In this document: positions 29,396 to 45,180 of the stretch, piece by piece
Position numbering within the stretch: position 1 is the first letter of the stretch
Layout: each line of letters begins with the position of its first letter
Source of the DNA: a virus
Reading direction: 5' to 3' (one strand)
DNA length: 64,000 nucleotides
UHGV virus genome: UHGV-0351052
Program-made: the position numbers and the translations under genes
The notes under the pieces: generated by a model
What the model saw: only the letters and a program-made list of their open reading frames with translations
Told to the model about the DNA's origin: nothing
Database searches by the model: none

Positions 29396-31660
29396 TCATA
29401 ATTTACAGGATGAACAGTCTTCAGCTTTTGGAGTTTCTATTTCATAATCATCAGTACCAGAACCATCACGGGTATTATGATAATAGAAATTTTTAATGCC
29501 ATAATACCATCCGTATAGCATGTCATCAATCATTATTGACATTGGAACCTTTCCTTTTGGAAAAATCTGCGGGTCATAATATGTATTCGCTGAAGCCGAT
29601 TGACATATCCATTTCAGCATAATAGCTACCTGCGTAAGATAAGGTTTATTACCTTTCTTAGCTAATTTCCATGTATAATCATAGAGGTCTATGTTATGCT
29701 CAATATTGGGCACGACTTGATTAAAGGAGCCCTCTTTTGATTCTTTAACAGAGACTGGTCCACGTGGAGGCTCGATACCGTTTGTACTGTTAGAAACTTG
29801 GGAAGATGACTCACACGGCATAAGTGCTGATAATGTGCTATTACGGATGCCAAAGAGCTTAAGGTCTTCCCGCAGCGACGACCAGTCACAAACGTATTTT
29901 GGAGCTGCGATTTGGTCAATCTTTTTATTGTACCAGTCGATAGGTAATTCGCCTCGAGACCAACGAGTGTCTGAATAATATTCGCAAGGTCCTTTTTCTT
30001 TGGCGAGCTTAATGGATGCTTTAATGAGTCCATACTGTAATCTCTCAAATAGTTCATGTGTTAAATCGTTAGCATCTTCATAAGAAGCAAAGTTACTTGC
30101 CAGCCAAGCTGCATAGTTAGTAACACCTACACCAAGGTTACGACGCTTTTTAGCTTTTTCTGCTTCAGGAACTGGATATCCTTGGTAATCCAAAAGATTA
30201 TCAAGAGCACGAACCTGGACTTCTGCCAATTCATTAATTTTATCTTGGTCTTGCCAGTCAAAATTATCCAGTACGAAGGCAGAGAGAGTACAGAGCCCAA
30301 TTTCAGCATCAGGACTATTCACATCATTTGTTGGAATAGCAATTTCACAGCACAAGTTACTCTGACGAATAGGTGCCTTTTCACGAATAAACGGAGTATA
30401 GTTATTCGTATTATCAATGAACTGCACATAAATCCTTGCTGTTCCTGAACGTTCAGTCATGAGCAATTCAAATAGTTCACGGGCTTTAATACGCTTTTTA
30501 CGAATATTAGGGTCTTTTTCTGCTGCTTCGTATAATTCACGGAAACGGTCTTGGTCTTTAAAATAAGAATAATAAAGCTCTCCGCCCATTTCATGGGGAC
30601 TGAACAAAGTAATGTAATCGTTCTTTCCAAAACGTTCCATCATCAAATCATTCAGTTGAACACCATAATCCATATGACGAATGCGGTTTTCTTCTACGCC
30701 TTTGTTATTTTTCAAAACAAGAAGATTTTCAACTTCCAAATGCCAAATAGGATAATAAGCAGTAGCAGCGCCGCCACGAATTCCACCCTGTGAGCATGAT
30801 TTAACAGCAGTCTGAAAATGTTTCCAAAAAGGAATAACACCAGTATGGCGTACTTCACCCATGCCAATCTTAGAACCTTCGGCACGAATCATACCAACGT
30901 TAATACCGATTCCAGCTCGTTTGGAAATATATTCAACAATTGAAGCAGAAGCCTTATTGATAGACTTCAGTGAATCGCCTGCCTCAATAACAACGCATGA
31001 ACTAAACTGCCGAGTTGGAGTACGGCAACCAGCCATAATAGGAGTTGGTAATGAAATCTGTCGAGTAGATACTGCTTCATAAAAACGGATAACATGTTTT
31101 AATCTATCAACAGGTTCATCTTGATGCAGTGCCATTCCAATAGCCATAAATGCAAACTGTGGAGTTTCATAAATTTGACCAGTGGTTTTATCTTTAACTA
31201 AATATTTTTCTTTTAATTGCATCGCCCCGGAATAAGTAAATTCCATATCCCGTTCGTGCTTAATTTTTGATTCTAAAAATGTAATTTCTTCTGCTGAATA
31301 TTTTGACAATAATTCAGGGTCATATTTACCTTCATTTACACAGTAAGAAATATGGTCAATAAATGAACGTGGTTCATACTGCCCATAAACATGCTTACGA
31401 AGAGCGAACATTAAACAGCGTGCAGCTACATATTGATAATCAGGTTCTTCAACCGAAATAGAATTCGCAGCGGCCTTAATGACAATAGTCTGAATATCAT
31501 CAGTTGTCATTCCATCACGGAGATAAGATTTAATATTTTCATATAATTCATAAGGATCTACTGATGTTCCTTCAGCTGCCCAAGATAAAACTTTAATAAT
31601 TTTTTGTGGGTCAAAGCTCTGAGAAACACCACTACTTTTGATAACATTAATTAATTGCAT
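29396..31660 (-). CDS. nrdA: ribonucleotide reductase large subunit NrdA
   Basis: 754 aa from MQLINVIKSSG (ATG 31660 with GAGGA SD); track ORF extends 32 codons upstream. Confidence 0.95.
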   Translation of the reverse strand: MQLINVIKSSGVSQSFDPQKIIKVLSWAAEGTSVDPYELYENIKSYLRDGMTTDDIQTIVIKAAANSISVEEPDYQYVAARCLMFALRKHVYGQYEPRSFIDHISYCVNEGKYDPELLSKYSAEEITFLESKIKHERDMEFTYSGAMQLKEKYLVKDKTTGQIYETPQFAFMAIGMALHQDEPVDRLKHVIRFYEAVSTRQISLPTPIMAGCRTPTRQFSSCVVIEAGDSLKSINKASASIVEYISKRAGIGINVGMIRAEGSKIGMGEVRHTGVIPFWKHFQTAVKSCSQGGIRGGAATAYYPIWHLEVENLLVLKNNKGVEENRIRHMDYGVQLNDLMMERFGKNDYITLFSPHEMGGELYYSYFKDQDRFRELYEAAEKDPNIRKKRIKARELFELLMTERSGTARIYVQFIDNTNNYTPFIREKAPIRQSNLCCEIAIPTNDVNSPDAEIGLCTLSAFVLDNFDWQDQDKINELAEVQVRALDNLLDYQGYPVPEAEKAKKRRNLGVGVTNYAAWLASNFASYEDANDLTHELFERLQYGLIKASIKLAKEKGPCEYYSDTRWSRGELPIDWYNKKIDQIAAPKYVCDWSSLREDLKLFGIRNSTLSALMPCESSSQVSNSTNGIEPPRGPVSVKESKEGSFNQVVPNIEHNIDLYDYTWKLAKKGNKPYLTQVAIMLKWICQSASANTYYDPQIFPKGKVPMSIMIDDMLYGWYYGIKNFYYHNTRDGSGTDDYEIETPKAEDCSSCKL

Positions 31661-31685
31661 AAGTCCTCTGTAGTAAGTTACCCCA

Positions 31686-31693
31686 TATAAATA
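31686..31693 (+). promoter_or_regulatory. late promoter TATAAATA for free-standing GIY-YIG endonuclease
   Basis: exact TATAAATA 23 nt upstream of ATG 31716; AGGAGA SD between. Confidence 0.5.
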
Positions 31694-31715
31694 TAATTTT
31701 ATATAGGAGAATATA

Positions 31716-32447
31716 ATGAAATCTGGAATATATGCTATTATAAACACTAAAACCAATAAGCACTATATAGGAAGTGCAATTAATTTTGAAGAACGATGGA
31801 AACGACACTTTAAAGATTTAGATAATGGAAATCATCATTCAATAAAGCTGCAGCGTTCTTATAATAAGCATGGGAAAGATGCTTTCGTATGTAAAATCAT
31901 AGAAGAACTTCCATACGAAAAATCTATCATTATTGAACGTGAAAATTATTGGATACATGAATATGACTCAAAGGAAAATGGGTATAATATAGCAGACGCA
32001 TCGTTTGGGGATACCTTATCTCATCACCCAAGAAAGCAAGAAATCCTTAATAAAATTTCAAATGCAATTAAAAATAATAATTCAAAATTATCACCAGAAG
32101 AACTTAAGCAAAAACATGGTAGACCTAAAGATATCAAAGGTAAAACTATAGAAGAACACTATGGGTTAGATCGTGCTATAGAACTAAGCAAAAAGTTCCA
32201 AGAAAGAAACGCTGCGCTTAATATGAAAGGCATCAATAATCCATATTATGGACAGACACATACCAATGAAGTTAGAAAACGAATTTCTGACTCACAAAGA
32301 GGTAAAAAGAAACCCCATCTAAGAGTAAGTATAGATGGGGTAGAATATCCAACAATAGCAGAAGCTGTGCGTCAAACCGGAATAAGCAGAAAACTTATAT
32401 CTAAAAGATGTGCTCTAGATTGTTGGGAATCATATTTATACTGCTAA
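31716..32447 (+). CDS. free-standing GIY-YIG homing endonuclease, I-TevI paralog (243 aa)
   Basis: N-terminal ~100 aa about 70% identical to I-TevI catalytic domain (GIY...YIG, RWKRHFK, NGYNIAD); divergent C-terminal domain; opposite strand to flanking nrdA and td. Confidence 0.85.
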
Positions 32448-32681
32448 AGTTCTACATTCTTCATATTGTTTTTCCGTTAAAACAGTAATATCATAATAAC
32501 AGTCAGAAGAAGTTTTAACTGTAGAAATTTTATTATCAAAATACTCACGAGTCATTTTATGAGTATAATATTTTTTGCCATAAATGATAATAGGCTGATT
32601 TGGTCCTGGAACTTCTAACTCGCTTGGGTTAGGAAGTGTAAAAAGAACTACACCAGAAGTATCTTTAAATCGTAAAATCAT
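32436..32681 (-). CDS. hypothetical protein (81 aa) downstream of td
   Basis: ORF; 3' end overlaps convergent endonuclease gene by 12 nt. Confidence 0.5.
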
Positions 32682-32989
32682 ATTGCCATTTTCCCTTTAA
32701 TTGCTGGATGCGATTCATAATTTTCAAGGATAAAATCTTTCGGTTTCATGTATTCAGTTAACCAGTAAAGCTGTGTTTCGGTGTCACAATTTCCAAACTC
32801 TATAGGCCAATCAATTTTAAGTTCACACAGTTCTTTAGGCTCACGACGTAAAATTTCTTTACATTGCTCAGTATGATTCATATAGATGTGAGTATTACCG
32901 CCAGAAAATATCAAATCTCCTGGGATAAGATTACACATCTTAGCTACAATATGAACTAACGCAGCGTATGATGCAATATTAAATGGTAG
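32678..32989 (-). CDS. td: thymidylate synthase, exon 2
   Basis: starts LPFNIASY directly after intron-terminal ATG; exon 1 + exon 2 = 286 aa. Confidence 0.9.
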
Positions 32990-33435
32990 CATTATGTTCA
33001 GATAAGGTCGTTAATCTTACCCCGGAATTATATCCAGCTGCATGTCACCATGCAGATCAGACTATATCTCCAACTTGTTAAAGCAAGTTGTCTATCGTTT
33101 CGAGTCACTTGACCCTACTCCCCAAAGGGATAGTCGTTAGGCATTTATGTAGAACCAATTCCATTTATCAGATTTTACACGATAAGTAACTAATCCAGAC
33201 GAAATTTTAAAATGCCTCTTCCATCTCTTTTCAAAATCTTTAGCACTTCCTACATATACTTTATTGTTTAAAGTATTTTTAATCTGATAAATTCCGCTTT
33301 TCATAAATACCTCTTTAAATATAGAAGTATTTATGAAAGGGCAGTCCTACAATTTAGCACGGGATTGTCTACTAGAGAGGTTCCCCGTTTAGATAGATTA
33401 CAAGTATAAGTCACCTTATACTCAGGCCTCAATTA
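32990..33435 (-). mobile_element. group I self-splicing intron in td (446 nt) with deleted endonuclease ORF
   Basis: exon 1 ends ...VDVFLG before in-frame TAA; intron 5' TAATTGAGGCCTGAGTATAAGGTG and 3' ...ATG match T4 td intron as recalled; 446 = 1016 - 570. Confidence 0.85.
33137..33304 (-). pseudogene. I-TevI remnant (55 codons; in-frame internal deletion)
   Basis: hand translation MKSGIYQIKNTLNNKVYVGSAKDFEKRWKRHFK|ISSGLVTYRVKSDKWNWFYINA: I-TevI N-terminal 33 aa fused to C-terminal 22 aa at an RHFK repeat. Confidence 0.75.
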
Positions 33436-34807
<1,372 letters not shown>

Positions 34808-34817
34808 ATTATTTTCC

Positions 34818-35117
34818 TTAAACAGACTTTTTCACAATTTTCCAATCAGCTTTAAACTGTTCAACGTCAGAATGGTAAATCCAGAATCCTGCGCTTTCTC
34901 CGTCTTCATAAAGCGGACACCCATCGCATTCATCTTCCCATCCCATGCCACGTAAAAGGTGTTCAGCTTTTTCAACAAGTTCAGAATCTTTACCGATGAT
35001 ATTAAAATACCATTTACCTCTAACTTCCGAATCTTTGATGCTCTGACGTTGTAATCTCATTTTATTCTCCTTAGTTGATAAGGCTATAGTATCACTACCA
35101 TAGCCTGTTGTAAACAA
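34818..35117 (-). CDS. hypothetical protein (99 aa)
   Basis: ORF with early promoter-like motif upstream. Confidence 0.6.
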   Translation of the reverse strand: MFTTGYGSDTIALSTKENKMRLQRQSIKDSEVRGKWYFNIIGKDSELVEKAEHLLRGMGWEDECDGCPLYEDGESAGFWIYHSDVEQFKADWKIVKKSV

Positions 35118-35411
35118 TTATTTTTGAATTTTATCGAGCCACTTACCGAGCTTAATCATTTCTTTAGTAGCCTTTTCCATACTTCTGAACTTAACCAATA
35201 GAGGATAGGTATCGACACCCATAACTAAATTGGTTACAAGACTGTGTTCACCCACAAGCCATAACGAATACGTTTGAATATCGAGCCCGTAATTTCTGTC
35301 TTTATGGACCCGTACACCCATCACTTCAAATTTCTCACTAGCTTTTTCTACCGCATCCAGGAAATCATCTTTAGTCATATTAGGCCTTAAAAGTTTTTCG
35401 CAAAAGTTCAA
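35118..35411 (-). CDS. hypothetical protein (97 aa)
   Basis: ORF. Confidence 0.6.
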   Translation of the reverse strand: MNFCEKLLRPNMTKDDFLDAVEKASEKFEVMGVRVHKDRNYGLDIQTYSLWLVGEHSLVTNLVMGVDTYPLLVKFRSMEKATKEMIKLGKWLDKIQK

Positions 35412-35766
35412 TGATTTCGTCTACATTGTTTTCATCTACAATGCAGTGAATTTTTGTTACGCCAGAAACTATACCTTCATTAGCGGATTGAGGCTTTTCT
35501 AAAGTTACCTCAGTAAAGTATTTGAATTCTTCAGGGTAAATCTCAAAATACGTCTCAAGTGGGCCACCCGCCATGTATTCAGTGCCATCTTCCATAGTTA
35601 CACGTACCACACATTCACCAGCACAATCATCACTTTCCATTTCATCTACAACAAAACTAGGTCCATGCTTCTCTATTAAATTTAGCATCATCACATTGCA
35701 ACGGCACTCGTTAGCAAAGTCATTTTTAAATAAAGGGTTAATGATATAAGTTTTTCCGATTTTCAT
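35380..35766 (-). CDS. hypothetical protein (128 aa)
   Basis: ORF. Confidence 0.6.
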   Translation of the reverse strand: MKIGKTYIINPLFKNDFANECRCNVMMLNLIEKHGPSFVVDEMESDDCAGECVVRVTMEDGTEYMAGGPLETYFEIYPEEFKYFTEVTLEKPQSANEGIVSGVTKIHCIVDENNVDEIIELLRKTFKA

Positions 35767-35810
35767 TTATTTTCTCTCATTTTGATAGGGGCTTAATAGC
35801 CCCTTGATAA

Positions 35811-36038
35811 TTATTGTTCAATCAGTCCCATGTAAAATTCTGCGTCTTCAGAATCCATGCCATCACAATATTCATTAGCCATAAAGCGGGTAAGGTCTTC
35901 AAGAGGACCTTCAATAACGATTTGAATACTCCAAAACTTAGAATCTTGCACGCTTGTGATACTAAGTTCAGGATAACGATTACGAATAATCTCTTCAATA
36001 TATTCAAAATCAACGATGTCAATATCAACTTTAGCCAT
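35811..36038 (-). CDS. hypothetical protein (75 aa)
   Basis: ATG 36038 with GAGAGGAAA SD; track ORF start lies upstream of the promoter, so the shorter form is used. Confidence 0.5.
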
Positions 36039-36081
36039 ATTATTTTCCTCTCTAATCATCAGCAGTATTGCCGATAGTTGT

Positions 36082-36111
36082 ATAGTACCATGGAAGAACA
36101 AGGATGTAAAC
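36082..36111 (-). promoter_or_regulatory. sigma70-type early promoter (-35 GTTTACA, 17 bp, -10 TACTAT)
   Basis: member of repeated promoter family with shared leader ACAACTATC. Confidence 0.5.
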
Positions 36112-36120
36112 AGTTTTGTG

Positions 36121-36161
36121 AAAAAATTTTTGAAATAAAAAAGGGGACCTCTAGGGTCCCC
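36121..36161 (-). terminator. rho-independent terminator downstream of gene 32
   Basis: GGGGACC-loop-GGTCCCC hairpin followed on minus strand by TTTTTTATTTC. Confidence 0.6.
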
Positions 36162-36183
36162 AATTAATTAGTAATATAATCTA

Positions 36184-37092
36184 TTAAAGGTCATTCAAAA
36201 GGTCATCCAGGTCCGTGTCATCAGCACTAGATGAACTGCCAGAGCTTGAGCTCATAAAATCATCTTCAGTTTTTGTTTTGAAGTCATCAACATTGAATGC
36301 ATCCAAATCATCAGCAACTTTATCAGCTTTCTTAGCAGCAGTCGCTGCGGCACCACCCATAGCAGCAGTTCCCATAACTTGACTGAACTTAGTGCTCAGT
36401 TCTTCAAATGATTTGAATTTATCTTTAGAAGTCATTTCAGAAAGGTCAACCATTTGTTCGAACAGTTCTTTCTGGAAAGATTCATCATCAATGTTTGGAA
36501 TCGCAGATTGATTCAGGAATTTAGATTCATCGTAGTTACTAAATCCAGAAACCTGTTTAACTTTCAGTACAAAGTTAGCACCTTCCCACGGACAAGTTAC
36601 ATCAACCGGAGTTTCACCCATTTCAACATCAACTGCAATCATTGCATTGATTTTATCCCAGATTTTCTTACCGAAACGATATTTAAATACTTTACCTTCG
36701 TTTTCTGGAGCAGCTGGGTCTTTTACTACAAGAATGTTAGCCCAATAAGAAGTTTTACGTTTAACAAGACTGTACTCTTTATTGTCAGTGTTGTACAGAT
36801 CATTTTTACTGATGTACTGACATACTGGACAAGAATCGTAATCACCGTGGGTAGATGAACAGTTTTCAATATACCATTTACCATTTTTCTTGAAGCCGTG
36901 ATTTACAAGAATTGCGAATGGTGCTTGTTCATCATTTTTAGACGGAAGAAAACGAATTACTGCTTGACCGTTACCCGCATTATCGAGTTTCAGTTTCCAC
37001 TCGCCTTTATCTTCAGAAGAAAAACCACCTTTATTTCCAGCCAGTTTAGCCATTTGTGCAGCGAGTTCAGCAGTAGATTTACGTTTAAACAT
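36184..37092 (-). CDS. 32: gp32 single-stranded DNA-binding protein
   Basis: 302 aa; matches T4 gp32 incl. acidic C-terminal tail. Confidence 0.97.
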
Positions 37093-37175
37093 TTTTATTT
37101 CCTTTTTAATTTAATTTAATTTAATTTAATTAACAGTTGGTGCTATGACGATGTATGACCTCATAGCTGGTCAGT
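37093..37175 (-). promoter_or_regulatory. gene 32 translational operator (5' leader with AU-rich pentamer repeats)
   Basis: (TAATT)n / mRNA UUAAAUUAAAUUAAA repeats directly upstream of gene 32 ATG, preceded by structured region. Confidence 0.6.
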
Positions 37176-37190
37176 GAGATAATTATAATC

Positions 37191-37198
37191 TATTTATA
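37191..37198 (-). promoter_or_regulatory. late promoter TATAAATA (minus strand) upstream of gene 32
   Basis: plus-strand TATTTATA about 100 nt upstream of gene 32 ATG. Confidence 0.4.
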
Positions 37199-37206
37199 AT
37201 AAGCAA

Positions 37207-37860
37207 TTAATATTTGCAAGATTTCACAGTTTCAATGAAAACATTTTTAGCTTTCTGTGAATCAATATTTAAAATTTTTCTATAAGCCTTTAACTTTATA
37301 GAATAATTATTCCAGACTAAATTATCAGTCTGTTCATCATGTTTATCAATTATATTTAAAAACGAATCAAGCAAGATAAACGTCTCAAACGAAATTATGT
37401 TCGATTGCAGAAGTTTAAAAATATAACTTGACTGAACCTTTGGATTATATTCAAAGATTTCTTTAAAAGCAGAAACTTCAACTTTCTTACTAAAATAATA
37501 AATGTTGCGAATATCTTCTTCAAACTTAAATTTAATTTGCTTTAAGCGTCCGATATATTCACGATAAAACACAAGTGCATCAGCGTCAGAGATGTCACCA
37601 ATCCAAGCATCTTGGTTAGCAACCAAATTGCTTATAAAGATTAAAGCAAGTTCCTTTAATTTATATTTTTCTGATAACTTCTGGAAAAAATACTTATCCC
37701 TTCGCTTTTGATAAGCGGCATCAGACACCCGCATGCACCAATTATACTTAATAACATCATACTTTCCATTCATATGTTGTTTTATCATTAAGTATAATTT
37801 ATAAACTGATTTACCATCAATGTATCTTTCACCACCAGCAGGCATGCGGAGTTTAATCAT
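37207..37860 (-). CDS. 59: gp59 helicase loader
   Basis: 217 aa; synteny. Confidence 0.9.
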   Translation of the reverse strand: MIKLRMPAGGERYIDGKSVYKLYLMIKQHMNGKYDVIKYNWCMRVSDAAYQKRRDKYFFQKLSEKYKLKELALIFISNLVANQDAWIGDISDADALVFYREYIGRLKQIKFKFEEDIRNIYYFSKKVEVSAFKEIFEYNPKVQSSYIFKLLQSNIISFETFILLDSFLNIIDKHDEQTDNLVWNNYSIKLKAYRKILNIDSQKAKNVFIETVKSCKY

Positions 37861-38195
37861 AGCAGAAAATCTAATGTATTAGTTTTTTCACAACGAACAA
37901 CAGAAGGACGTAAAAGATTTTCGTCAATGGCTTCTGACTGAATTTTTTCAATTATACCCGAAGGAATAAATTTAGCAAATTGAGTTTCAGGAATAGAATT
38001 TTCTTCTAAGAATGCTGTTGTAGCTTCAAGATAACTCATTCCAAACTCTTCTACCATTTTTTCAATAATAAATCCATTTTCTTGACGATCAAGAAGCTTT
38101 GCTATTTCATCCTTTTCTTTCTTAATTGAAAGTTCTTTTTCTGAAAGACCGGTCTCATCGACCGGACGAATATCATTTAGAGAAAACTGTGTCAT
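37857..38195 (-). CDS. 33: gp33 late transcription co-activator
   Basis: 112 aa from MTQFSLN (track ORF starts 3 codons upstream). Confidence 0.8.
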   Translation of the reverse strand: MTQFSLNDIRPVDETGLSEKELSIKKEKDEIAKLLDRQENGFIIEKMVEEFGMSYLEATTAFLEENSIPETQFAKFIPSGIIEKIQSEAIDENLLRPSVVRCEKTNTLDFLL

Positions 38196-38442
38196 AAAGT
38201 TCAACTACCTCTTCAGTTTCAGCTTCAAACACATCACGGTTATCTTTATGATACAAAGCTAATAGACGATTAAACATCTTACCATCAACGCCAAGTTCAT
38301 CTTTGGCACGAATTCGAATATCTTTAATCAGTTCATTATAACCGGAAATTTTCAGTTTATGATCAGATGCTTCTTTAATAAATTTAGCCAAGTCTTCGCC
38401 ATGGATAGCTTCATCAAATTCAACCATTTCTTTTTTAGCCAT
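38173..38442 (-). CDS. dsbA: DsbA double-stranded DNA-binding protein
   Basis: 89 aa; synteny. Confidence 0.8.
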   Translation of the reverse strand: MAKKEMVEFDEAIHGEDLAKFIKEASDHKLKISGYNELIKDIRIRAKDELGVDGKMFNRLLALYHKDNRDVFEAETEEVVELYDTVFSK

Positions 38443-38450
38443 TATTCACC

Positions 38451-39368
38451 TCAAAATTCATTAATGCTATTAGTTAATTTAGAAAGACCCGCTTTTACAA
38501 AATATGAATAAATTTTGCCACGCGGTGGTAATTTATATGAATTATAGTAATTCACAATGTTTGAAGCAATATTATCAGGAATATAATCAAAATCAATTAG
38601 AACTAAATTTTCTTTATAACGATTATATTCAGATTCAGTGAGAAGCACCTTAGCTTGCTCACGGTCATTAGCAATAGCTTCAACGATTGAAGTTTTCATT
38701 GAAGGAGTTCGTTCACCTTCAACTCTGGTAAACCAAAAGTCAGATCGTACTTTAACTGAAGCAACGTTATCCTTTTTGTCGCCTTTAAGGATTTTAGTCA
38801 TACAGTCAATTTCAGCAGAACCGCTTTTAATTTTAACCCATTTCTTGTGCATCGGTGACCATTGCTTAACATTTGGGTATTTGTGAAGCTGTGTAAAGTC
38901 ACCATCCGACGAAATGATTAAAATTTTATGTCCTTCTAAAGAGAACTTTTTAACAAGAACAGCAATGTGGTCATCTGCTTCATACTTATCAATATCCATA
39001 ACAATGTATGGCATATAAGCTTTCAATTCATCTATAACTTTATGACTGGATTCAAAATAACCTTCCCAGTCCCAAGTAGATTCTTCTCGTGCTTTTCCGC
39101 GGTTTTTCTTGTAATAGTAAGCAAAATCACGACGCCAATATCCAGATTTCGCGTTATCAATACACAGCACAATTTTAGTGTATCCAAGCGTTTTTGCTTT
39201 TTTGACATTAAACTTAATTGAGTTCAATATCAAATGACGAACCATTGATAAATTAATTTTTTCTTTATCTGGGAAGTTTACTAAAGCAGTTGAAAGCGCG
39301 ATTTGACTAAAGTCAATTAAGCAGATTCCTTCTTTGTAATCTTCATCCAACATCATTTCTAAATCCAT
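38451..39368 (-). CDS. rnh: RNase H (5'-3' exonuclease, FEN family)
   Basis: 305 aa from MDLEMM (track ORF starts 5 codons upstream). Confidence 0.9.
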   Translation of the reverse strand: MDLEMMLDEDYKEGICLIDFSQIALSTALVNFPDKEKINLSMVRHLILNSIKFNVKKAKTLGYTKIVLCIDNAKSGYWRRDFAYYYKKNRGKAREESTWDWEGYFESSHKVIDELKAYMPYIVMDIDKYEADDHIAVLVKKFSLEGHKILIISSDGDFTQLHKYPNVKQWSPMHKKWVKIKSGSAEIDCMTKILKGDKKDNVASVKVRSDFWFTRVEGERTPSMKTSIVEAIANDREQAKVLLTESEYNRYKENLVLIDFDYIPDNIASNIVNYYNSYKLPPRGKIYSYFVKAGLSKLTNSINEF

Positions 39369-39428
39369 ATGAACCTCGTTCAATTAGTGAGATTTCTATT
39401 ATACCATCCAAATCTTAAAGTAAATAAG

Positions 39429-39436
39429 TATAAATA
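39429..39436 (+). promoter_or_regulatory. late promoter TATAAATA for gene 34
   Basis: exact TATAAATA 35 nt upstream of gene 34 ATG. Confidence 0.5.
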
Positions 39437-39470
39437 CTTATTATTGAAAACACAATAGGAGCCCGGGAGA

Positions 39471-42400
39471 ATGGCCGAGATTAAAAGAAAGTTCAGAGCA
39501 GAAGATGGTCTGGACGCAGGTGGTGATAAAATAATCAACGTAGCTTTAGCTGATCGTACCGTAGGAACTGACGGTGTTAACGTTGATTACTTAATTCAAG
39601 AAAACACAGTTCAACAATATGATCCAACTCGTGGATATTTAAAAGATTTTGTAATCATTTATAATAATCGTTTTTGGGCAGCAACGGATGATATTCCAAA
39701 ACCTGCTGGAAATTTTAATAGAATTCGTTGGAAAGCATTACGTACTGATGCTGTATATACAACCGTATCATCTGGACCATATCAATTAAAATCCGGAGAA
39801 GCAATTTCAGTAGATACATCAGTTGGCAATGACATTGAGTTTAATTTACCACCTTCTCCTCTTGATGGAGAAACCGTAATAATTCAAGATATTGGTGGAA
39901 AACCTGGTATAAATCAGGTTAAAATAAATTCTTCAAATCAGAGTATTGTTAATTTTAGAGGTGAACAGGTACGTTCAGTTCTAATGACTCATCCAAAGTC
40001 ACAAATGATATTCATTTTTAATAATCGTTTGTGGCAAATGTATGTTGCTGATTATAGCAGAGAAGCTGCGATTGTTACTCCATCGACTGCATATCAAGCA
40101 CAATCTAATGATTTTATCGTGCGTAGATTTACTTCTGCTTCAGCAATTAATATTAAACTTCCAAGATTTGCTAATCATGGCGATATTATTAATTTCGTTG
40201 ATTTGGATAAATTAAATCCTCTTTATCACACAATTGTTACTACATATGATGAAACAACTTCAGTACAAGAAGTTGGAACTCATTCCATTGAAGGTCGTAC
40301 ATCGATTGACGGTTTCTTGATGTTTGATGATAATGAGAAATTGTGGAGATTGTTTGACGGGGATAGTAAAGCACGTTTACGCATTATAACAACTAATTCT
40401 AATATTCGTCCAAATGAAGAAGTCATGGTGTTTGGTGCGAATAATGGAGCAACCCAAACAATTGAACTTCAGCTTCCGACTGATATTTCTGTTGGTGATA
40501 CTGTTAAAATTTCTATGAATTACATGAGAAAAGGACAAACAGTTAAAATCAAAGCTGCAGGTGAAGATAAAATTGCTTCCTCAGTTCAATTGCTGCAATT
40601 CCCAAAACGTTCAGAATATCCACCTGAAGCTGAGTGGGTTACAGTTCAAGAATTAGTTTTTAACGGTGAAACTAATTATGTTCCAGTTTTGGAGCTTGCT
40701 TATATAGAAGATTCTGATGGAAAATATTGGGTTGTACAGCAAAACGTTCCAACCGTAGAAAGAGTAGATTCTTTAAATGATTCTACTAGAGCAAGATTAG
40801 GCGTAATTGCTTTAGCTACACAAGCTCAAGCTAACGTCGATTTAGAAAATTCTCCACAAAAAGAATTAGCAATTACTCCAGAAACATTAGCTAACCGTAC
40901 TGCTACAGAAACTCGTAGAGGTATCGCAAGAATAGCAACTACTGCTCAAGTAAATCAGAACACTACATTCTCTTTTGCTGATGACCTTATCATCACTCCT
41001 AAAAAACTGAATGAAAGAACTGCCACAGAAACTCGTAGAGGCGTTGCTGAAATTGCCACACAGCAAGAAACTAACGCAGGTACTGATGATACTGCAATCA
41101 TCACTCCTAAAAAGCTTCAAGCTCGACAAGGTTCTGAATCATTATCGGGTATTGTAACCTTTGTATCTACCGCAGGAGCTACTCCAGCTTCTAGTCGTGA
41201 ATTAAATGGTACAAACGTTTATAATAAAAACACTAATAATTTAGTTGTTTCGCCTAAAGCTCTGGATCAGTATAAAGCTACTCCAACACAACAAGGTGCA
41301 GTAATTTTAGCAGTTGAAAGTGAAGTAATTGCTGGGCAAAGCCAAGAAGGATGGGCAAATGCGGTTGTAACGCCAGAAACGTTACATAAAAAGACATCAA
41401 CTGATGGAAGAATTGGTTTAATTGAAATTGCTACGCAAAGTGAAGTTAATACAGGAACTGATTACACTCGTGCAGTCACTCCGAAAACTTTAAATGACCG
41501 TATAGCAACTGAAAGTTTAAGTGGTATAGCTGAAATTGCTACACAAGTTGAATTCGACGCAGGCGTCGACGATACTCGTATCTCTACACCATTAAAAATT
41601 AAAACCAGATTTAATAGTACTGATCGTACTTCTGTTGTTGCTCTATCTGGATTAGTTGAATCAGGAACTCTCTGGGACCATTATACCCTTAATATTCTTG
41701 AAGCAAACGAGGCACAACGTGGTACACTTCGTGTAGCTACACAAGTTGAAGCTGCTGCAGGAACATTAGATAATGTTTTGATAACTCCTAAAAAGCTTTT
41801 AGGTACTAAATCTACTGAAGCACAAGAAGGTGTTATTAAAGTTGCAACTCAGTCTGAAACTGTGACTGGAACGTCAGCAAATACTGCTGTATCTCCAAAA
41901 AATTTAAAATGGATTGTGCAGAGTGAACCTACTTGGGCAGCAACTACTCTGATAAGAGGGTTTGTTAAAACTTCATCTGGTTCAATTACATTCGTTGGTA
42001 ATGATACCGTTGGTTCAACGCAGTCATTAGAATTATACGAGAAAAATGGTTATGCAGTATCACCATATGAATTAAATCGCGTATTAGCAAATTATTTGCC
42101 ATTAAAAGCAAAAGCTGTAGATAGTAATTTATTAGATGGTCTAGATTCGCTCCAGTTCATTCGTAGGGACATTGCACAAACAGTTAATGGTTCACTAACC
42201 TTAACCCAACAAACGAATCTGAGTGCCCCTCTTGTATCATCTAGTACTGCTACATTCGGTGGATCAGTTTCAGCAAATAGTACATTAACTATTTCTAATA
42301 CTGGAACGGCAACTCGTCTGATTTTTGAGAAAGGACCTCAAACTGGAACAAACCCGGCTCAAACGATGACTGTCAGAGTGTGGGGAAATCAATTTAGTGG

Positions 42401-43340
42401 GGAATCAGACACAACACGTTCTACCGTATTTGAAGTTAGTGATGAAACGTCTAGTCATTTTTATTCTCAGCGTAATAAAGCTGGAAATATAACATTTAAT
42501 ATCAACGGTACAGTAACACCGATAAATGTTAATGCTTCAGGAACATTGAATGCAAATGGTGTAGCAACATTTGGTAATTCAGTCACTGCAACTGGTGAAA
42601 TTATTTCTCGAAGCGCAAATGCTTTCCGTGCTATTAACGGAAATTATGGTTTCATTATTCGTAATGACGGGTCAGTAACGAATTTTATGCTTACTGCATC
42701 AGGCAATCAAACTGGTGGATTTAATGGATTACGTCCATTGTCCATTAATAATCAATCTGGGCAGGTCACAATTGGTGAAAGCTTGATCATTGCTAAAGGT
42801 GCTACTATAAATTCAGGTGGTTTAACTGTTAACTCGAGAATTCGTTCTCAAGGTGTTAAAACATCTGATTTATATACTCGTGCGCCGACATCTGATACTG
42901 TAGGATTCTGGTCAATCGATATTAATGATTCAGCCACTTATAACCAGTTCCCGGGTTATTTTAAAATGGTTGAAAAAACTAATGAAGTTACTGGACTTCC
43001 ATACTTAGAACGTGGCGAAGAAGTTAAATCTCCTGGTACATTGACTCAGTTTGGTAACACACTTGATTCACTTTACCAAGATTGGATTACTTATCCAACG
43101 ACTCCAGAAGCACGTACCACTCGCTGGACACGTACATGGCAAAAAACTAAAAACTCTTGGTCAAGTTTTGTTCAGGTATTTGATGGAGGTAACCCTCCTC
43201 AACCTTCGGATATAGGAGCAATCCCATCTGATAATGGAATAATAGGTAATCTTACTATTCGTGATTTCTTACGAATTGGTAATGTTCGCATTATTCCTGA
43301 CCCAGTGAATAAAACTGTTAAATTTGAATGGGTTGAATAA
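39471..43340 (+). CDS. 34: long tail fibre proximal subunit gp34
   Basis: 1289 aa; repeated TPK(T/K)L...T motifs; synteny. Confidence 0.95.
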   Translation: MAEIKRKFRAEDGLDAGGDKIINVALADRTVGTDGVNVDYLIQENTVQQYDPTRGYLKDFVIIYNNRFWAATDDIPKPAGNFNRIRWKALRTDAVYTTVSSGPYQLKSGEAISVDTSVGNDIEFNLPPSPLDGETVIIQDIGGKPGINQVKINSSNQSIVNFRGEQVRSVLMTHPKSQMIFIFNNRLWQMYVADYSREAAIVTPSTAYQAQSNDFIVRRFTSASAINIKLPRFANHGDIINFVDLDKLNPLYHTIVTTYDETTSVQEVGTHSIEGRTSIDGFLMFDDNEKLWRLFDGDSKARLRIITTNSNIRPNEEVMVFGANNGATQTIELQLPTDISVGDTVKISMNYMRKGQTVKIKAAGEDKIASSVQLLQFPKRSEYPPEAEWVTVQELVFNGETNYVPVLELAYIEDSDGKYWVVQQNVPTVERVDSLNDSTRARLGVIALATQAQANVDLENSPQKELAITPETLANRTATETRRGIARIATTAQVNQNTTFSFADDLIITPKKLNERTATETRRGVAEIATQQETNAGTDDTAIITPKKLQARQGSESLSGIVTFVSTAGATPASSRELNGTNVYNKNTNNLVVSPKALDQYKATPTQQGAVILAVESEVIAGQSQEGWANAVVTPETLHKKTSTDGRIGLIEIATQSEVNTGTDYTRAVTPKTLNDRIATESLSGIAEIATQVEFDAGVDDTRISTPLKIKTRFNSTDRTSVVALSGLVESGTLWDHYTLNILEANEAQRGTLRVATQVEAAAGTLDNVLITPKKLLGTKSTEAQEGVIKVATQSETVTGTSANTAVSPKNLKWIVQSEPTWAATTLIRGFVKTSSGSITFVGNDTVGSTQSLELYEKNGYAVSPYELNRVLANYLPLKAKAVDSNLLDGLDSLQFIRRDIAQTVNGSLTLTQQTNLSAPLVSSSTATFGGSVSANSTLTISNTGTATRLIFEKGPQTGTNPAQTMTVRVWGNQFSGESDTTRSTVFEVSDETSSHFYSQRNKAGNITFNINGTVTPINVNASGTLNANGVATFGNSVTATGEIISRSANAFRAINGNYGFIIRNDGSVTNFMLTASGNQTGGFNGLRPLSINNQSGQVTIGESLIIAKGATINSGGLTVNSRIRSQGVKTSDLYTRAPTSDTVGFWSIDINDSATYNQFPGYFKMVEKTNEVTGLPYLERGEEVKSPGTLTQFGNTLDSLYQDWITYPTTPEARTTRWTRTWQKTKNSWSSFVQVFDGGNPPQPSDIGAIPSDNGIIGNLTIRDFLRIGNVRIIPDPVNKTVKFEWVE

Positions 43341-43351
43341 GAGGAGATATT

Positions 43352-44467
43352 ATGGAAAAATTTATGGCAGAGTTTGGACAGGGATATGTCCAAACGCCAT
43401 TTTTATCGGAAAGCAATTCAGTAAGATATAAAATAAGCATAGCGGGCTCTTGCCCGCTTTCTACTGCAGGGCCATATGTTAAATTTCAGGATAATCCCGT
43501 TGGAAATCAAACATTTAGTGCAGGTCTTCATTTAAGAGTTTTTGACCCTTCTACGGGAGCATTAGTTGATAGTAAGTCATATGCTTTTTCTGCTTCAAAC
43601 AATACAACATCTGCCGCTTTTGTCAGTTTCATGAATTCTTTGTCAAACAATAAACTTGTTGCTATATTAACTAGCGGAAAGGTTAATTTTCCTCCTGAAG
43701 TGGTATCTTGGTTAAGGAGAGCAGGAACTTCAGTTTTTCCATCAGATTCAGTATTGTCAAGATTTGACGTATCATATGCTGCTTTTTATACTTCTTCTAA
43801 AAGAGCTATCGCATTAGAGCATGTTAAACTAAGTAATAGAAAAAGCACAGATGACTATCAAACTATGCTAGATGTTGTATTTGATAGTTTAGAAGACGTT
43901 GGAGCGACAGGATTTCCAAAAAGAACTTATGAAAGCGTTGAACAATTTATGTCTGCGGTTGGAGGAACTAATAATGAAATTGCGCGATTGCCAACTTCAG
44001 CTGCTATAAGTAAACTTTCTGACTACAATTTAATTCCTGGTGATGTTCTTTATCTTAAAGCACAGTTATATGCTGATGCTGATTTACTTGATCTTGGAAC
44101 TGCAAATATATCTATTCGTTTTTATGATGCATCAAATGGATATATTTCCTCGACCCAAGCTGAGTTTACTGGGCAAGCTGGGTCTTGGGAATTAAAAGAA
44201 GATTATGTAGTTGTTCCTGAAAATGCAGTAGGATTTACGATATATGCACAAAGAACTGCCCAAGCAGGTCAAGGCGGCATGAGAAATTTAAGCTTTTCTG
44301 AAGTATCAAGAAATGGCGGAATTTCGAAACCTGCTGAATTTGGTGTCAATGGTATTCGTGTTAATTATATCGGTGAATCCTCTTCACCTCCAGATATAAT
44401 GGTACTTCCTACACAGGCATCGTCTAAAACTGGTAAAGTGTTTGGACAGGAATTTAGAGAAGTTTAA
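43352..44467 (+). CDS. 35: long tail fibre hinge protein gp35
   Basis: 371 aa; synteny. Confidence 0.9.
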   Translation: MEKFMAEFGQGYVQTPFLSESNSVRYKISIAGSCPLSTAGPYVKFQDNPVGNQTFSAGLHLRVFDPSTGALVDSKSYAFSASNNTTSAAFVSFMNSLSNNKLVAILTSGKVNFPPEVVSWLRRAGTSVFPSDSVLSRFDVSYAAFYTSSKRAIALEHVKLSNRKSTDDYQTMLDVVFDSLEDVGATGFPKRTYESVEQFMSAVGGTNNEIARLPTSAAISKLSDYNLIPGDVLYLKAQLYADADLLDLGTANISIRFYDASNGYISSTQAEFTGQAGSWELKEDYVVVPENAVGFTIYAQRTAQAGQGGMRNLSFSEVSRNGGISKPAEFGVNGIRVNYIGESSSPPDIMVLPTQASSKTGKVFGQEFREV

Positions 44468-44473
44468 ACTGAG

Positions 44474-44495
44474 GGAGCCTTCGGGTTCCTTTTTT
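44474..44495 (+). terminator. rho-independent terminator after gene 35
   Basis: GGAGCC-TTCG-GGTTCC hairpin followed by TTTTTT. Confidence 0.55.
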
Positions 44496-44498
44496 CTT

Positions 44499-44506
44499 TA
44501 TAAATA
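44499..44506 (+). promoter_or_regulatory. late promoter TATAAATA for gene 36
   Basis: exact TATAAATA 24 nt upstream of gene 36 ATG. Confidence 0.5.
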
Positions 44507-44529
44507 ATATTAAAATAAAGGGGCATACA

Positions 44530-45180
44530 ATGGCTGATTTAAAAGTAGGTTCAACTGTAGGTGGATCTGTCATTTGGCATCAAGGAAATTTTCCGTTGAA
44601 TTCAGCCGGTGACGATGTACTCTACAAATCATTTAAAATATATTCAGAATATAATAAACCACAGGCATCTGATAATGATTTCGTTTCTAAATCTACTGGT
44701 GGTACTTACACTGGTCCAATTACTATTAATTACGGGGTAAATAGTTATCTTCAATTAAGTAATAATGAAACCCCAATTCGAATTCGTTCCGGTGGCGGTA
44801 CCGGTAATACTCTTGTAATTGGCGGCTCTTCTGGCGGTATTAGTTTTAGACCTGCGGGTAGTGAAATCACTACTGGACAAATTACTATTACGCCAGAAGG
44901 TTTGACAACATTTACTAGGGCTGTAACGGCTCCATCTGTAACTGTTACATCTACTCCTTCCGCAGCATCAGATGCTACTCGTAAAGATTATGTTGATGGA
45001 GCAATAAATACTGTTACAGCAAATGCAAACTCTAGGGTATTACGCTCTGGAGACACTATGACAGGAAATTTAACTGCGCCAAACCTTTTTTCACAGAATC
45101 CTGCATCTCAACCTTCACACGTTCCACGATTTGACCAAATCGTAATTAAGGATTCTGTTCAAGATTTCGGCTATTATTAA
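44530..45180 (+). CDS. 36: long tail fibre distal connector gp36
   Basis: 216 aa; synteny. Confidence 0.85.

Follow-up and report, generated by a model that had tools for sequence, protein, structure and literature searches.

The minus-strand segment 37093-37175, which directly precedes gene 32, is almost certainly the autogenous translational operator of this gene in a T2-type Tequatrovirus. The element is already known, and the window, by which we mean the whole stretch of 64,000 nucleotides that was analysed, carries a rare length allele of it. As mRNA the leader (reverse complement of 37175-37090) reads ACUGACCAGCUAUGAGGUCAUACAUCGUCAUAGCACCAACUG UUAA(UUAAA)5 AAGGAAAUAAAA AUG, its end being UUAA(UUAAA)5AAGGAAAUAAAAAUG. 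The original prediction, a gene 32 leader with tandem AU-rich pentamers just 5' of the gp32 AUG, had given both the string and its coordinates exactly, and 37093-37175 correctly takes in the pseudoknot, the repeat, and the Shine-Dalgarno region, all on the minus strand. Its match to the unstructured operator that is bound by gp32 probably holds as well, with gp32 encoded downstream and a leader that is that of T2 save for n, the number of UUAAA units. The prediction was understated in that the fold upstream of the repeat is a specific, conserved pseudoknot, and in that the array comprises five units versus three in T4. The features of the region, all on the minus strand, are as follows.

36143-36161, minus: terminator-like hairpin GGGGACC...GGUCCCC plus U run, 22 nt past the gene 32 stop
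36184-37092, minus: gene 32 (gp32, 302 aa), repressor and regulated gene; Pfam PF08804, E=6.7e-67
37093-37104, minus: AAGGAAAUAAAA, Shine-Dalgarno AAGGA (37104-37100) and spacer to the AUG; identical in T2, T4, and RB32
37105-37133, minus: UUAA + (UUAAA)5, length-polymorphic A/U lattice, proposed site of cooperative gp32 binding
37133-37138, minus: hexamer AACUGU, conserved in T4-like gene 32 leaders
37134-37141, minus: linker ACCAACUG between pseudoknot and array
37142-37173, minus: H-type pseudoknot of 32 nt, proposed gp32 nucleation site; identical to T2, with covariation
37156-37160 and 37169-37173, minus: stem 1 of the pseudoknot, UGACC (37173-37169) paired with GGUCA (37160-37156); loop 1 is A 37168
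37142-37148 and 37161-37167, minus: stem 2, GCUAUGA (37167-37161) paired with UCAUAGC (37148-37142); loop 2 is UACAUCG (37155-37149)
37179-37184, minus: AAUUAU, ending 5 nt ahead of stem 1; counterpart of the sequence at which RNase E processes the T4 transcript
37182-37205, minus: predicted MotA-type middle promoter with TGCTT (37205-37201), an 11-bp spacer region, and the -10 TATAAT (37187-37182)
37191-37198, minus: T4 late-promoter motif TATAAATA, 13 nt past the gp59 stop; a positional match only

Gene neighbourhood and transcription unit

The window is a T4-like (Tequatrovirus) phage of the T2 type. On the minus strand the genes are arranged as rnh, dsbA, 33, 59, 32, and frd.3, which is the T4 order. 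The gp32 translation contains KRKST in its N-terminus (residues 3-7), a second motif, KRKTS, and the zinc site Cys-X3-His-X5-Cys-X2-Cys; the same KRKST/KRKTS motifs and a zinc-binding core are listed for T4 gp32 (PMC535899). Its start codon AUG is located at 37092-37090 (minus). The ORF at 37207-37860 (gene 59) matches both gp59 domains, and gp59, gp33, and DsbA are found upstream of gene 32 in T4 order. About 500 Tequatrovirus records span the 59-32 junction in BLAST searches, and in the window the intergenic region comprises 114 nt (37206-37093, minus). The homing-endonuclease gene segG is absent between genes 59 and 32 in the window, and the arrangement is therefore that of T2 and RB32 and not that of T4. 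A plus-strand ORF of 73 aa (36898-37119), which runs antisense to gp32, was dismissed as spurious.

Over positions 30000-45000 of the window, the best GenBank phage match has 96.7% identity over 92% of the query and is split into 7 pieces, which makes the window a mosaic Tequatrovirus without a near-identical genome in the GenBank phage collection searched over this range. The late-promoter motif TATAAATA is also present at 39429-39436 (+), 35 nt upstream of a 1289-aa ORF (39471-43340, +) whose BLAST neighbours are annotated as long tail fiber proximal subunit. Motif and tail fiber ORF are arranged as is usual for T4 late genes and run divergently from the 59-32 cluster.

Along the intergenic mRNA the order of elements is UUGCUUAU (MotA-box-like), UAUAAAUA (37198-37191), GAU UAUAAU (37187-37182), UAUCUCAC, the pseudoknot (37173-37142), ACCAACUG, UUAA(UUAAA)5 (37133-37105), AAGGAAAUAAAA, and the AUG. 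The start implied by the predicted middle promoter is at about 37176-37174 and coincides with the 5' edge of the pseudoknot, and the identical 23-mer GCTTATTATAAATAGATTATAAT is annotated as "predicted middle promoter" in Yersinia phage fPS-2. The late-promoter motif is treated as positional only because it is not enriched in the window (12 found versus 8.9 expected); phage SA20RB also carries it upstream of gene 32, annotated as a T4-late promoter but placed differently, inside segG. A scan for sigma-70 promoters remained at chance level (14 versus 10.8). The hairpin at 36143-36161 is the sole terminator-like site within 35700-38300, none being found between gene 59 and gene 32, and it probably marks the end of the transcription unit. 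Given the promoter motifs upstream and no terminator between genes 59 and 32, the repeat should, by sequence, form part of the gene 32 mRNA.

In T4 all gene 32 transcripts are cut by RNase E at position -71, and this site is conserved in five T4-related phages (PMC3014915). We located position -71 on the T4 locus within GA/AUUAUGCC and infer by analogy that RNase E would cleave at AAUUAU in the window. Another reading of the UAA-rich array would make it the target of a RegA-like regulator, or a collection of RNase E/G sites, and not a gp32 lattice. RB69 RegA selects UAA triplets in vitro, as the title of a study cited in PMC3014915 states, and RNase E prefers AU-rich single strands and does process the gene 32 mRNA (PMC3014915). 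However, the mapped RNase E sites of gene 32 at -71, -1340, and +831 are outside the array (PMC3014915), the literature used presents gene 32 as autoregulated and not as a RegA target, and the T4 gp32 footprints cover the segment (PMC535899). This explanation is very improbable.

The pseudoknot

Minimum free energy folding of the leader recovers the 7-bp hairpin GCUAUGA/UCAUAGC, and UGACC/GGUCA interleaves with it so that an H-type pseudoknot results. The region upstream of the repeat had been proposed to be able to fold, which is borne out by the hairpin and, with respect to the pseudoknot, by covariation. For the latter we aligned eight distinct leaders of several T4-like lineages, namely those of the window, of T4, and of six distant T4-like phages whose gp32 proteins are 65-83% identical. 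All informative cells (90 of 90) form standard pairs, and compensatory changes on both sides are present in seven of the twelve pseudoknot pairs. There are 23 double-change cells compared to 8.3±2.2 in shuffles, and none of 500 shuffles reaches 23. As a control the 3' partners were slid by 1-3 columns, upon which pairing falls to 20-50% with at most one compensatory pair.

Of 26 enterobacterial-type loci scanned for the topology, 11 have the compact pseudoknot at -61 to -75; in shuffled 150-mers the frequency is 4.3% even when any position is allowed. In addition, a covariance model (R1) built from the six non-Tequatrovirus leaders only, with stem 2 as pairs, has a single significant match in the 64-kb window, which is 37139-37176 on the minus strand (24.3 bits, E=3e-5; the next best match has E=0.52). 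The Rfam scan of 36000-38500 (E<=10) yielded nothing on the leader and chance snoRNA-like matches inside the gp32 coding region. Because there is no Rfam family for the element, its absence from Rfam says nothing against the operator assignment. The minimum free energy of the whole leader is no better than that of shuffles (z=-0.91), which is expected because ViennaRNA cannot score pseudoknots and because little of the leader is supposed to have any structure.

Two loci (L026 and L027), whose gp32 is 63% identical, are without the compact pseudoknot. By eye, CAAUGAA/UUCAUUG may interleave with GGUGUAG/CUACAUC at about -100 to -55 from their gp32 AUG, giving a larger fold with longer loops that is followed by (UUAAA)2 and the Shine-Dalgarno sequence. 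It could represent a variant pseudoknot topology at the same position.

The UUAAA array and the ribosome-binding site

Tandem Repeats Finder reports 37105-37131 as a repeat of period 5 with 5.4 copies, 100% matches, and a score of 54, the second-highest in the window. No other array there combines more than five copies with a unit of over 3 nt. The 25-mer (TTAAA)5 has no occurrence in 100 dinucleotide-preserving shuffles of the window. Scanning IMG/VR for (TTAAA)5, in turn, gave at least 120 stretches, mostly in very AT-rich contigs including giant-virus MAGs, and of the contigs with these stretches 80 were fetched, none of which has a gp32 gene. Thus, the repeat alone is not diagnostic and it is the context that identifies the element. 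The earlier caution that the array could be mistaken for a simple repeat was fair, given that it is a length-polymorphic microsatellite of a kind frequent in unrelated AT-rich contigs.

Because UUAA is self-complementary, the self-folding of the array was checked. The n=5 array alone folds at just -1.5 kcal/mol, with A-U pairs exclusively, and the mean unpaired probability of the Shine-Dalgarno/AUG region is about 0.81 and steady for n=1-7. According to these predictions the array is essentially unstructured. The spacer between pseudoknot and AUG comprises 49 nt in the window (37141-37093) and 33-45 nt in the other pseudoknot-bearing leaders that were examined, and the quantitative behaviour of the window's operator may therefore differ. 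The Shine-Dalgarno region itself shows 1-nt polymorphisms. HY03 (L085) and SG1 (L093) have a run of A5 versus A4 before the GG, and SG1 and two IMG/VR loci (L004 and L005) have AAAAAUG versus AAAAUG between the Shine-Dalgarno sequence and the start codon. These A-run differences in HY03, SG1, L004, and L005 shift the Shine-Dalgarno-AUG spacing by one base.

It might be supposed that the array serves mainly as an S1-dependent translational enhancer or mRNA stabiliser, in which more units lead to more translation and repression by gp32 is secondary. In E. coli, translation is enhanced by AU-rich tracts that lie 5' of the Shine-Dalgarno sequence and are targeted by S1 (summary in PMC4408793). The phage also requires much gp32, and the gene 32 mRNA is unusually stable (PMC3014915). 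However, the need for UUAAA/UAAA in T4 has been ascribed to repression (PMC535899). We regard such a primary role as rather unlikely. An enhancer would also be compatible with the operator, with gp32 competing against the 30S subunit/S1 for one and the same lattice.

Comparison with known operators

The operator of T4 consists of a pseudoknot of about 28 nt starting at -67, followed by an unstructured segment of more than 40 nt in which UUAAA/UAAA repeats and the ribosome-binding site are located. Repression requires pseudoknot and segment alike, and gp32 nucleates at the pseudoknot and spreads cooperatively over the ribosome-binding site (PMC535899; PMC3014915). The sources for the T4 operator are McPheeters 1988 and Shamoo 1993, as cited in PMC535899, and the gp32 footprints cover the segment. 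For the operator of phages T2/T6, an NMR structure of the T2 gene 32 pseudoknot exists (entry 2TPK, cited through PMC3014915), and the site size of gp32 is 7 nt (PMC10484735).

Apart from the array, the window equals T2 over the last ~108 nt of the 114-nt 59-32 region. The shared parts are the promoter motifs, AAUUAU, the 32-nt pseudoknot, the ACCAACUG linker, the Shine-Dalgarno sequence, and the AUG. The RB32 leader, too, differs from that of the window in n alone. T2 has two UUAAA units and a spacer of 34 nt whereas the window has five units and 49 nt, corresponding to about five gp32 sites in T2 and about seven in the window. The T4 leader has the same architecture and the same stem 2, and the alignment with the T4 operator, which had been proposed as a check, gave identity in everything but n between the 3' arm of stem 2 and the AUG. 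It differs in having a 4-bp stem 1 (UGCC/GGUA), a 5-nt loop 2, and n=3 (39 nt) against n=5 in the window. In T4 the 5' half of the pseudoknot overlaps the end of segG, whereas the window is without segG. This overlap has already been described (PMC535899). The segG stop codon of T4 (L001 2326-2328) is inside the 5' arm of stem 2, GCUAUGA (37161-37167 in the window), and stem 1 and loop 2 of T4 depart from the T2 type exactly up to the segG junction.

RB69 gp32 is also autoregulated via an A/U-rich leader upstream of the Shine-Dalgarno sequence (PMC535899). In the RB69-like loci (L007-L013), however, the leader is located inside the 3' end of gene 59 and the repeat is AAAACUGU (three copies) and not UUAAA; the scan found no compact pseudoknot with a 1-nt loop in these loci. 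The S15 pseudoknot of E. coli rpsO and the hairpin operator of T4 gene 43 are likewise structured elements adjoining the ribosome-binding site, to which a protein binds and so represses its own mRNA (PMC3014915), but by a single specific binding event. Unlike these, the T-even gene 32 operator relies on a single-strand-binding protein that polymerises cooperatively, without regard to sequence, on an unstructured lattice.

Proposed mechanism

The leader combines the features by which we recognise an operator of this type. It is the same-strand 5' leader of a PF08804 gene without an intervening terminator, and the encoded gp32 has the N-terminal cooperativity motif and the zinc-binding core. Such operators have a compact H-type pseudoknot (4-5-bp stem 1, 1-nt loop 1, 7-bp stem 2) that precedes the AUG by about 30-45 nt, and the one in the window is of this form with a spacer, 49 nt, slightly beyond this range. 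Between the pseudoknot and the ribosome-binding site there is an unstructured A/U segment with UUAAA/UAAA. Given the near-identity with T2 and T4, binding, nucleation, spreading, and repression are transferred here from the experiments on T4, T2, and RB69. The gene 32 mRNA would be produced from the promoters in the 59-32 intergenic region and presumably also from longer upstream transcripts that are processed by RNase E. Once the single-stranded DNA is saturated and free gp32 rises, gp32 would first bind at the 32-nt pseudoknot (37142-37173) and then polymerise cooperatively, with about 7 nt per monomer, along the A/U-rich stretch 37141-37093. By covering the Shine-Dalgarno sequence and the AUG it would block ribosome binding. 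With five UUAAA units, the 49-nt lattice could accommodate about seven monomers.

Copy-number variation among relatives

The operator thus proposed is textbook translational autoregulation by a single-strand-binding protein, and the element itself adds nothing new. The only point that is not in the textbook is the variation of the repeat number among near-identical phages. For determining its extent, synthetic queries differing in n only were BLASTed against 50,697 GenBank phage records. The counts are lower bounds because megablast wants exact words of 28 nt and the repeat is masked; for example, SG1 (n=5) was missed by the n-variant queries and found by a separate search. The n=2 query matched 314 records at >=99%, two of which are split alignments of n=4 phages, leaving about 312. 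In an evenly spaced sample of the junction records, the spans of 27 of the 28 one-piece alignments imply n=2. The n=3 query matched 17 records at >=99%, which are T4 strains, RB55, RB59, P922, and SP1, and with the n=5 query end-to-end alignments were obtained only for Geo, SA20RB, and HY03, the last of which is one base short and represented by two records. All four matches of a metagenome scan have n=2, and a gapped-pattern scan for the operator in IMG/VR gave two contigs, which are too few for a distribution. About 17 leaders were read directly, with the following repeat numbers on the two pseudoknot backgrounds.

T2-type pseudoknot, n=2: T2, RB32, fPS-2, and others
T2-type pseudoknot, n=3: SP1
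T2-type pseudoknot, n=4: Geo
T2-type pseudoknot, n=5: window, HY03, SG1
T4/segG-type pseudoknot, n=2: one IMG/VR genome
T4/segG-type pseudoknot, n=3: T4
T4/segG-type pseudoknot, n=4: SA20RB
T4/segG-type pseudoknot, n=5: none seen among the fetched leaders

The lattice lengths for n=2, 3, 4, and 5 are 34, 39, 44, and 49 nt, respectively, on otherwise identical leaders. Over the first 330 nt from the Shine-Dalgarno sequence into gene 32, the sequences closest to the window are SP1 (n=3) with 99.1% and RB32 (n=2) with 98.8% identity, and HY03 follows with 98.2%; these values are from indel-free rows, with SG1, T4, and two IMG/VR loci left out for their 1-nt indels. HY03 is missing from the best matches when 15 kb of the window are compared. 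Repeat number therefore varies on both pseudoknot backgrounds and does not track the flanking haplotype, which suggests that recurrent slippage, or recombination, fits better than a single inherited expansion. The extra UUAAA units of the window most likely arose by replication slippage. Because n differs among near-identical phages, the exact number of units is not strongly constrained.

These data also bear on the possibility that units three to five are a neutral, slippage-prone microsatellite and that the operator works with two units. Two units are by far the usual state in the phage records and the metagenome matches, n ranges from 2 to 5 on identical flanks irrespective of background and haplotype, and many unrelated AT-rich viral contigs contain (TTAAA)5 microsatellites. 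However, each added unit is placed between the nucleation site and the Shine-Dalgarno sequence and must therefore alter the number of gp32 monomers needed to reach the latter, and no allele with n>5 or n<2 was seen, which, in an incomplete survey, hints at bounds. We regard neutrality of these units as quite possible, just short of probable. It concerns the increment alone and is compatible with the operator.

If the units were not neutral, the array could mutate fast and thereby tune the operator. Alleles produced by slippage (n=2-5 on the two backgrounds) would then shift the concentration of free gp32 at which translation is switched off, or the derepressed yield, and T-even phages would adjust the gp32 supply to hosts or replication conditions, the five-unit allele of the window, HY03, and SG1 representing the high end of the range. 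We consider this reading rather unlikely, and likewise a second one in which the hexamer AACUGU determines operator recognition in a sequence-specific way so far undescribed. The modest value of the variation for the operator is that it provides a natural allelic series of 2, 3, 4, and 5 UUAAA units on otherwise identical leaders. If the advantage comes from nucleation at the pseudoknot, the repression set-point is predicted to shift in one direction as the lattice lengthens; if it comes from how long a finite cooperative lattice is, the shift would go the other way. Therefore, the natural n=2-5 series would make an old quantitative question testable with reporter fusions.

The AACUGU hexamer

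The hexamer AACUGU at the junction of linker and array may, to judge from its distribution, be an undescribed sequence-specific determinant of operator recognition. It is without mention in the operator accounts PMC535899 and PMC3014915. Counted within 70 nt upstream of the gp32 AUG, no other hexamer is as widespread among gene 32 leaders; AACUGU is present in 24 of 26 T4-like loci (L003-L028), which are related to each other and in which some copies are under coding constraint. Its density is 25.8 per kb in the leaders versus 0.72 per kb across the remainder of the same loci. Pseudoknot-bearing leaders have one AACUGU directly 3' of the pseudoknot, and leaders without a compact pseudoknot (RB69-like) have three to four copies at a spacing of 10/13 nt inside the last codons of gene 59.
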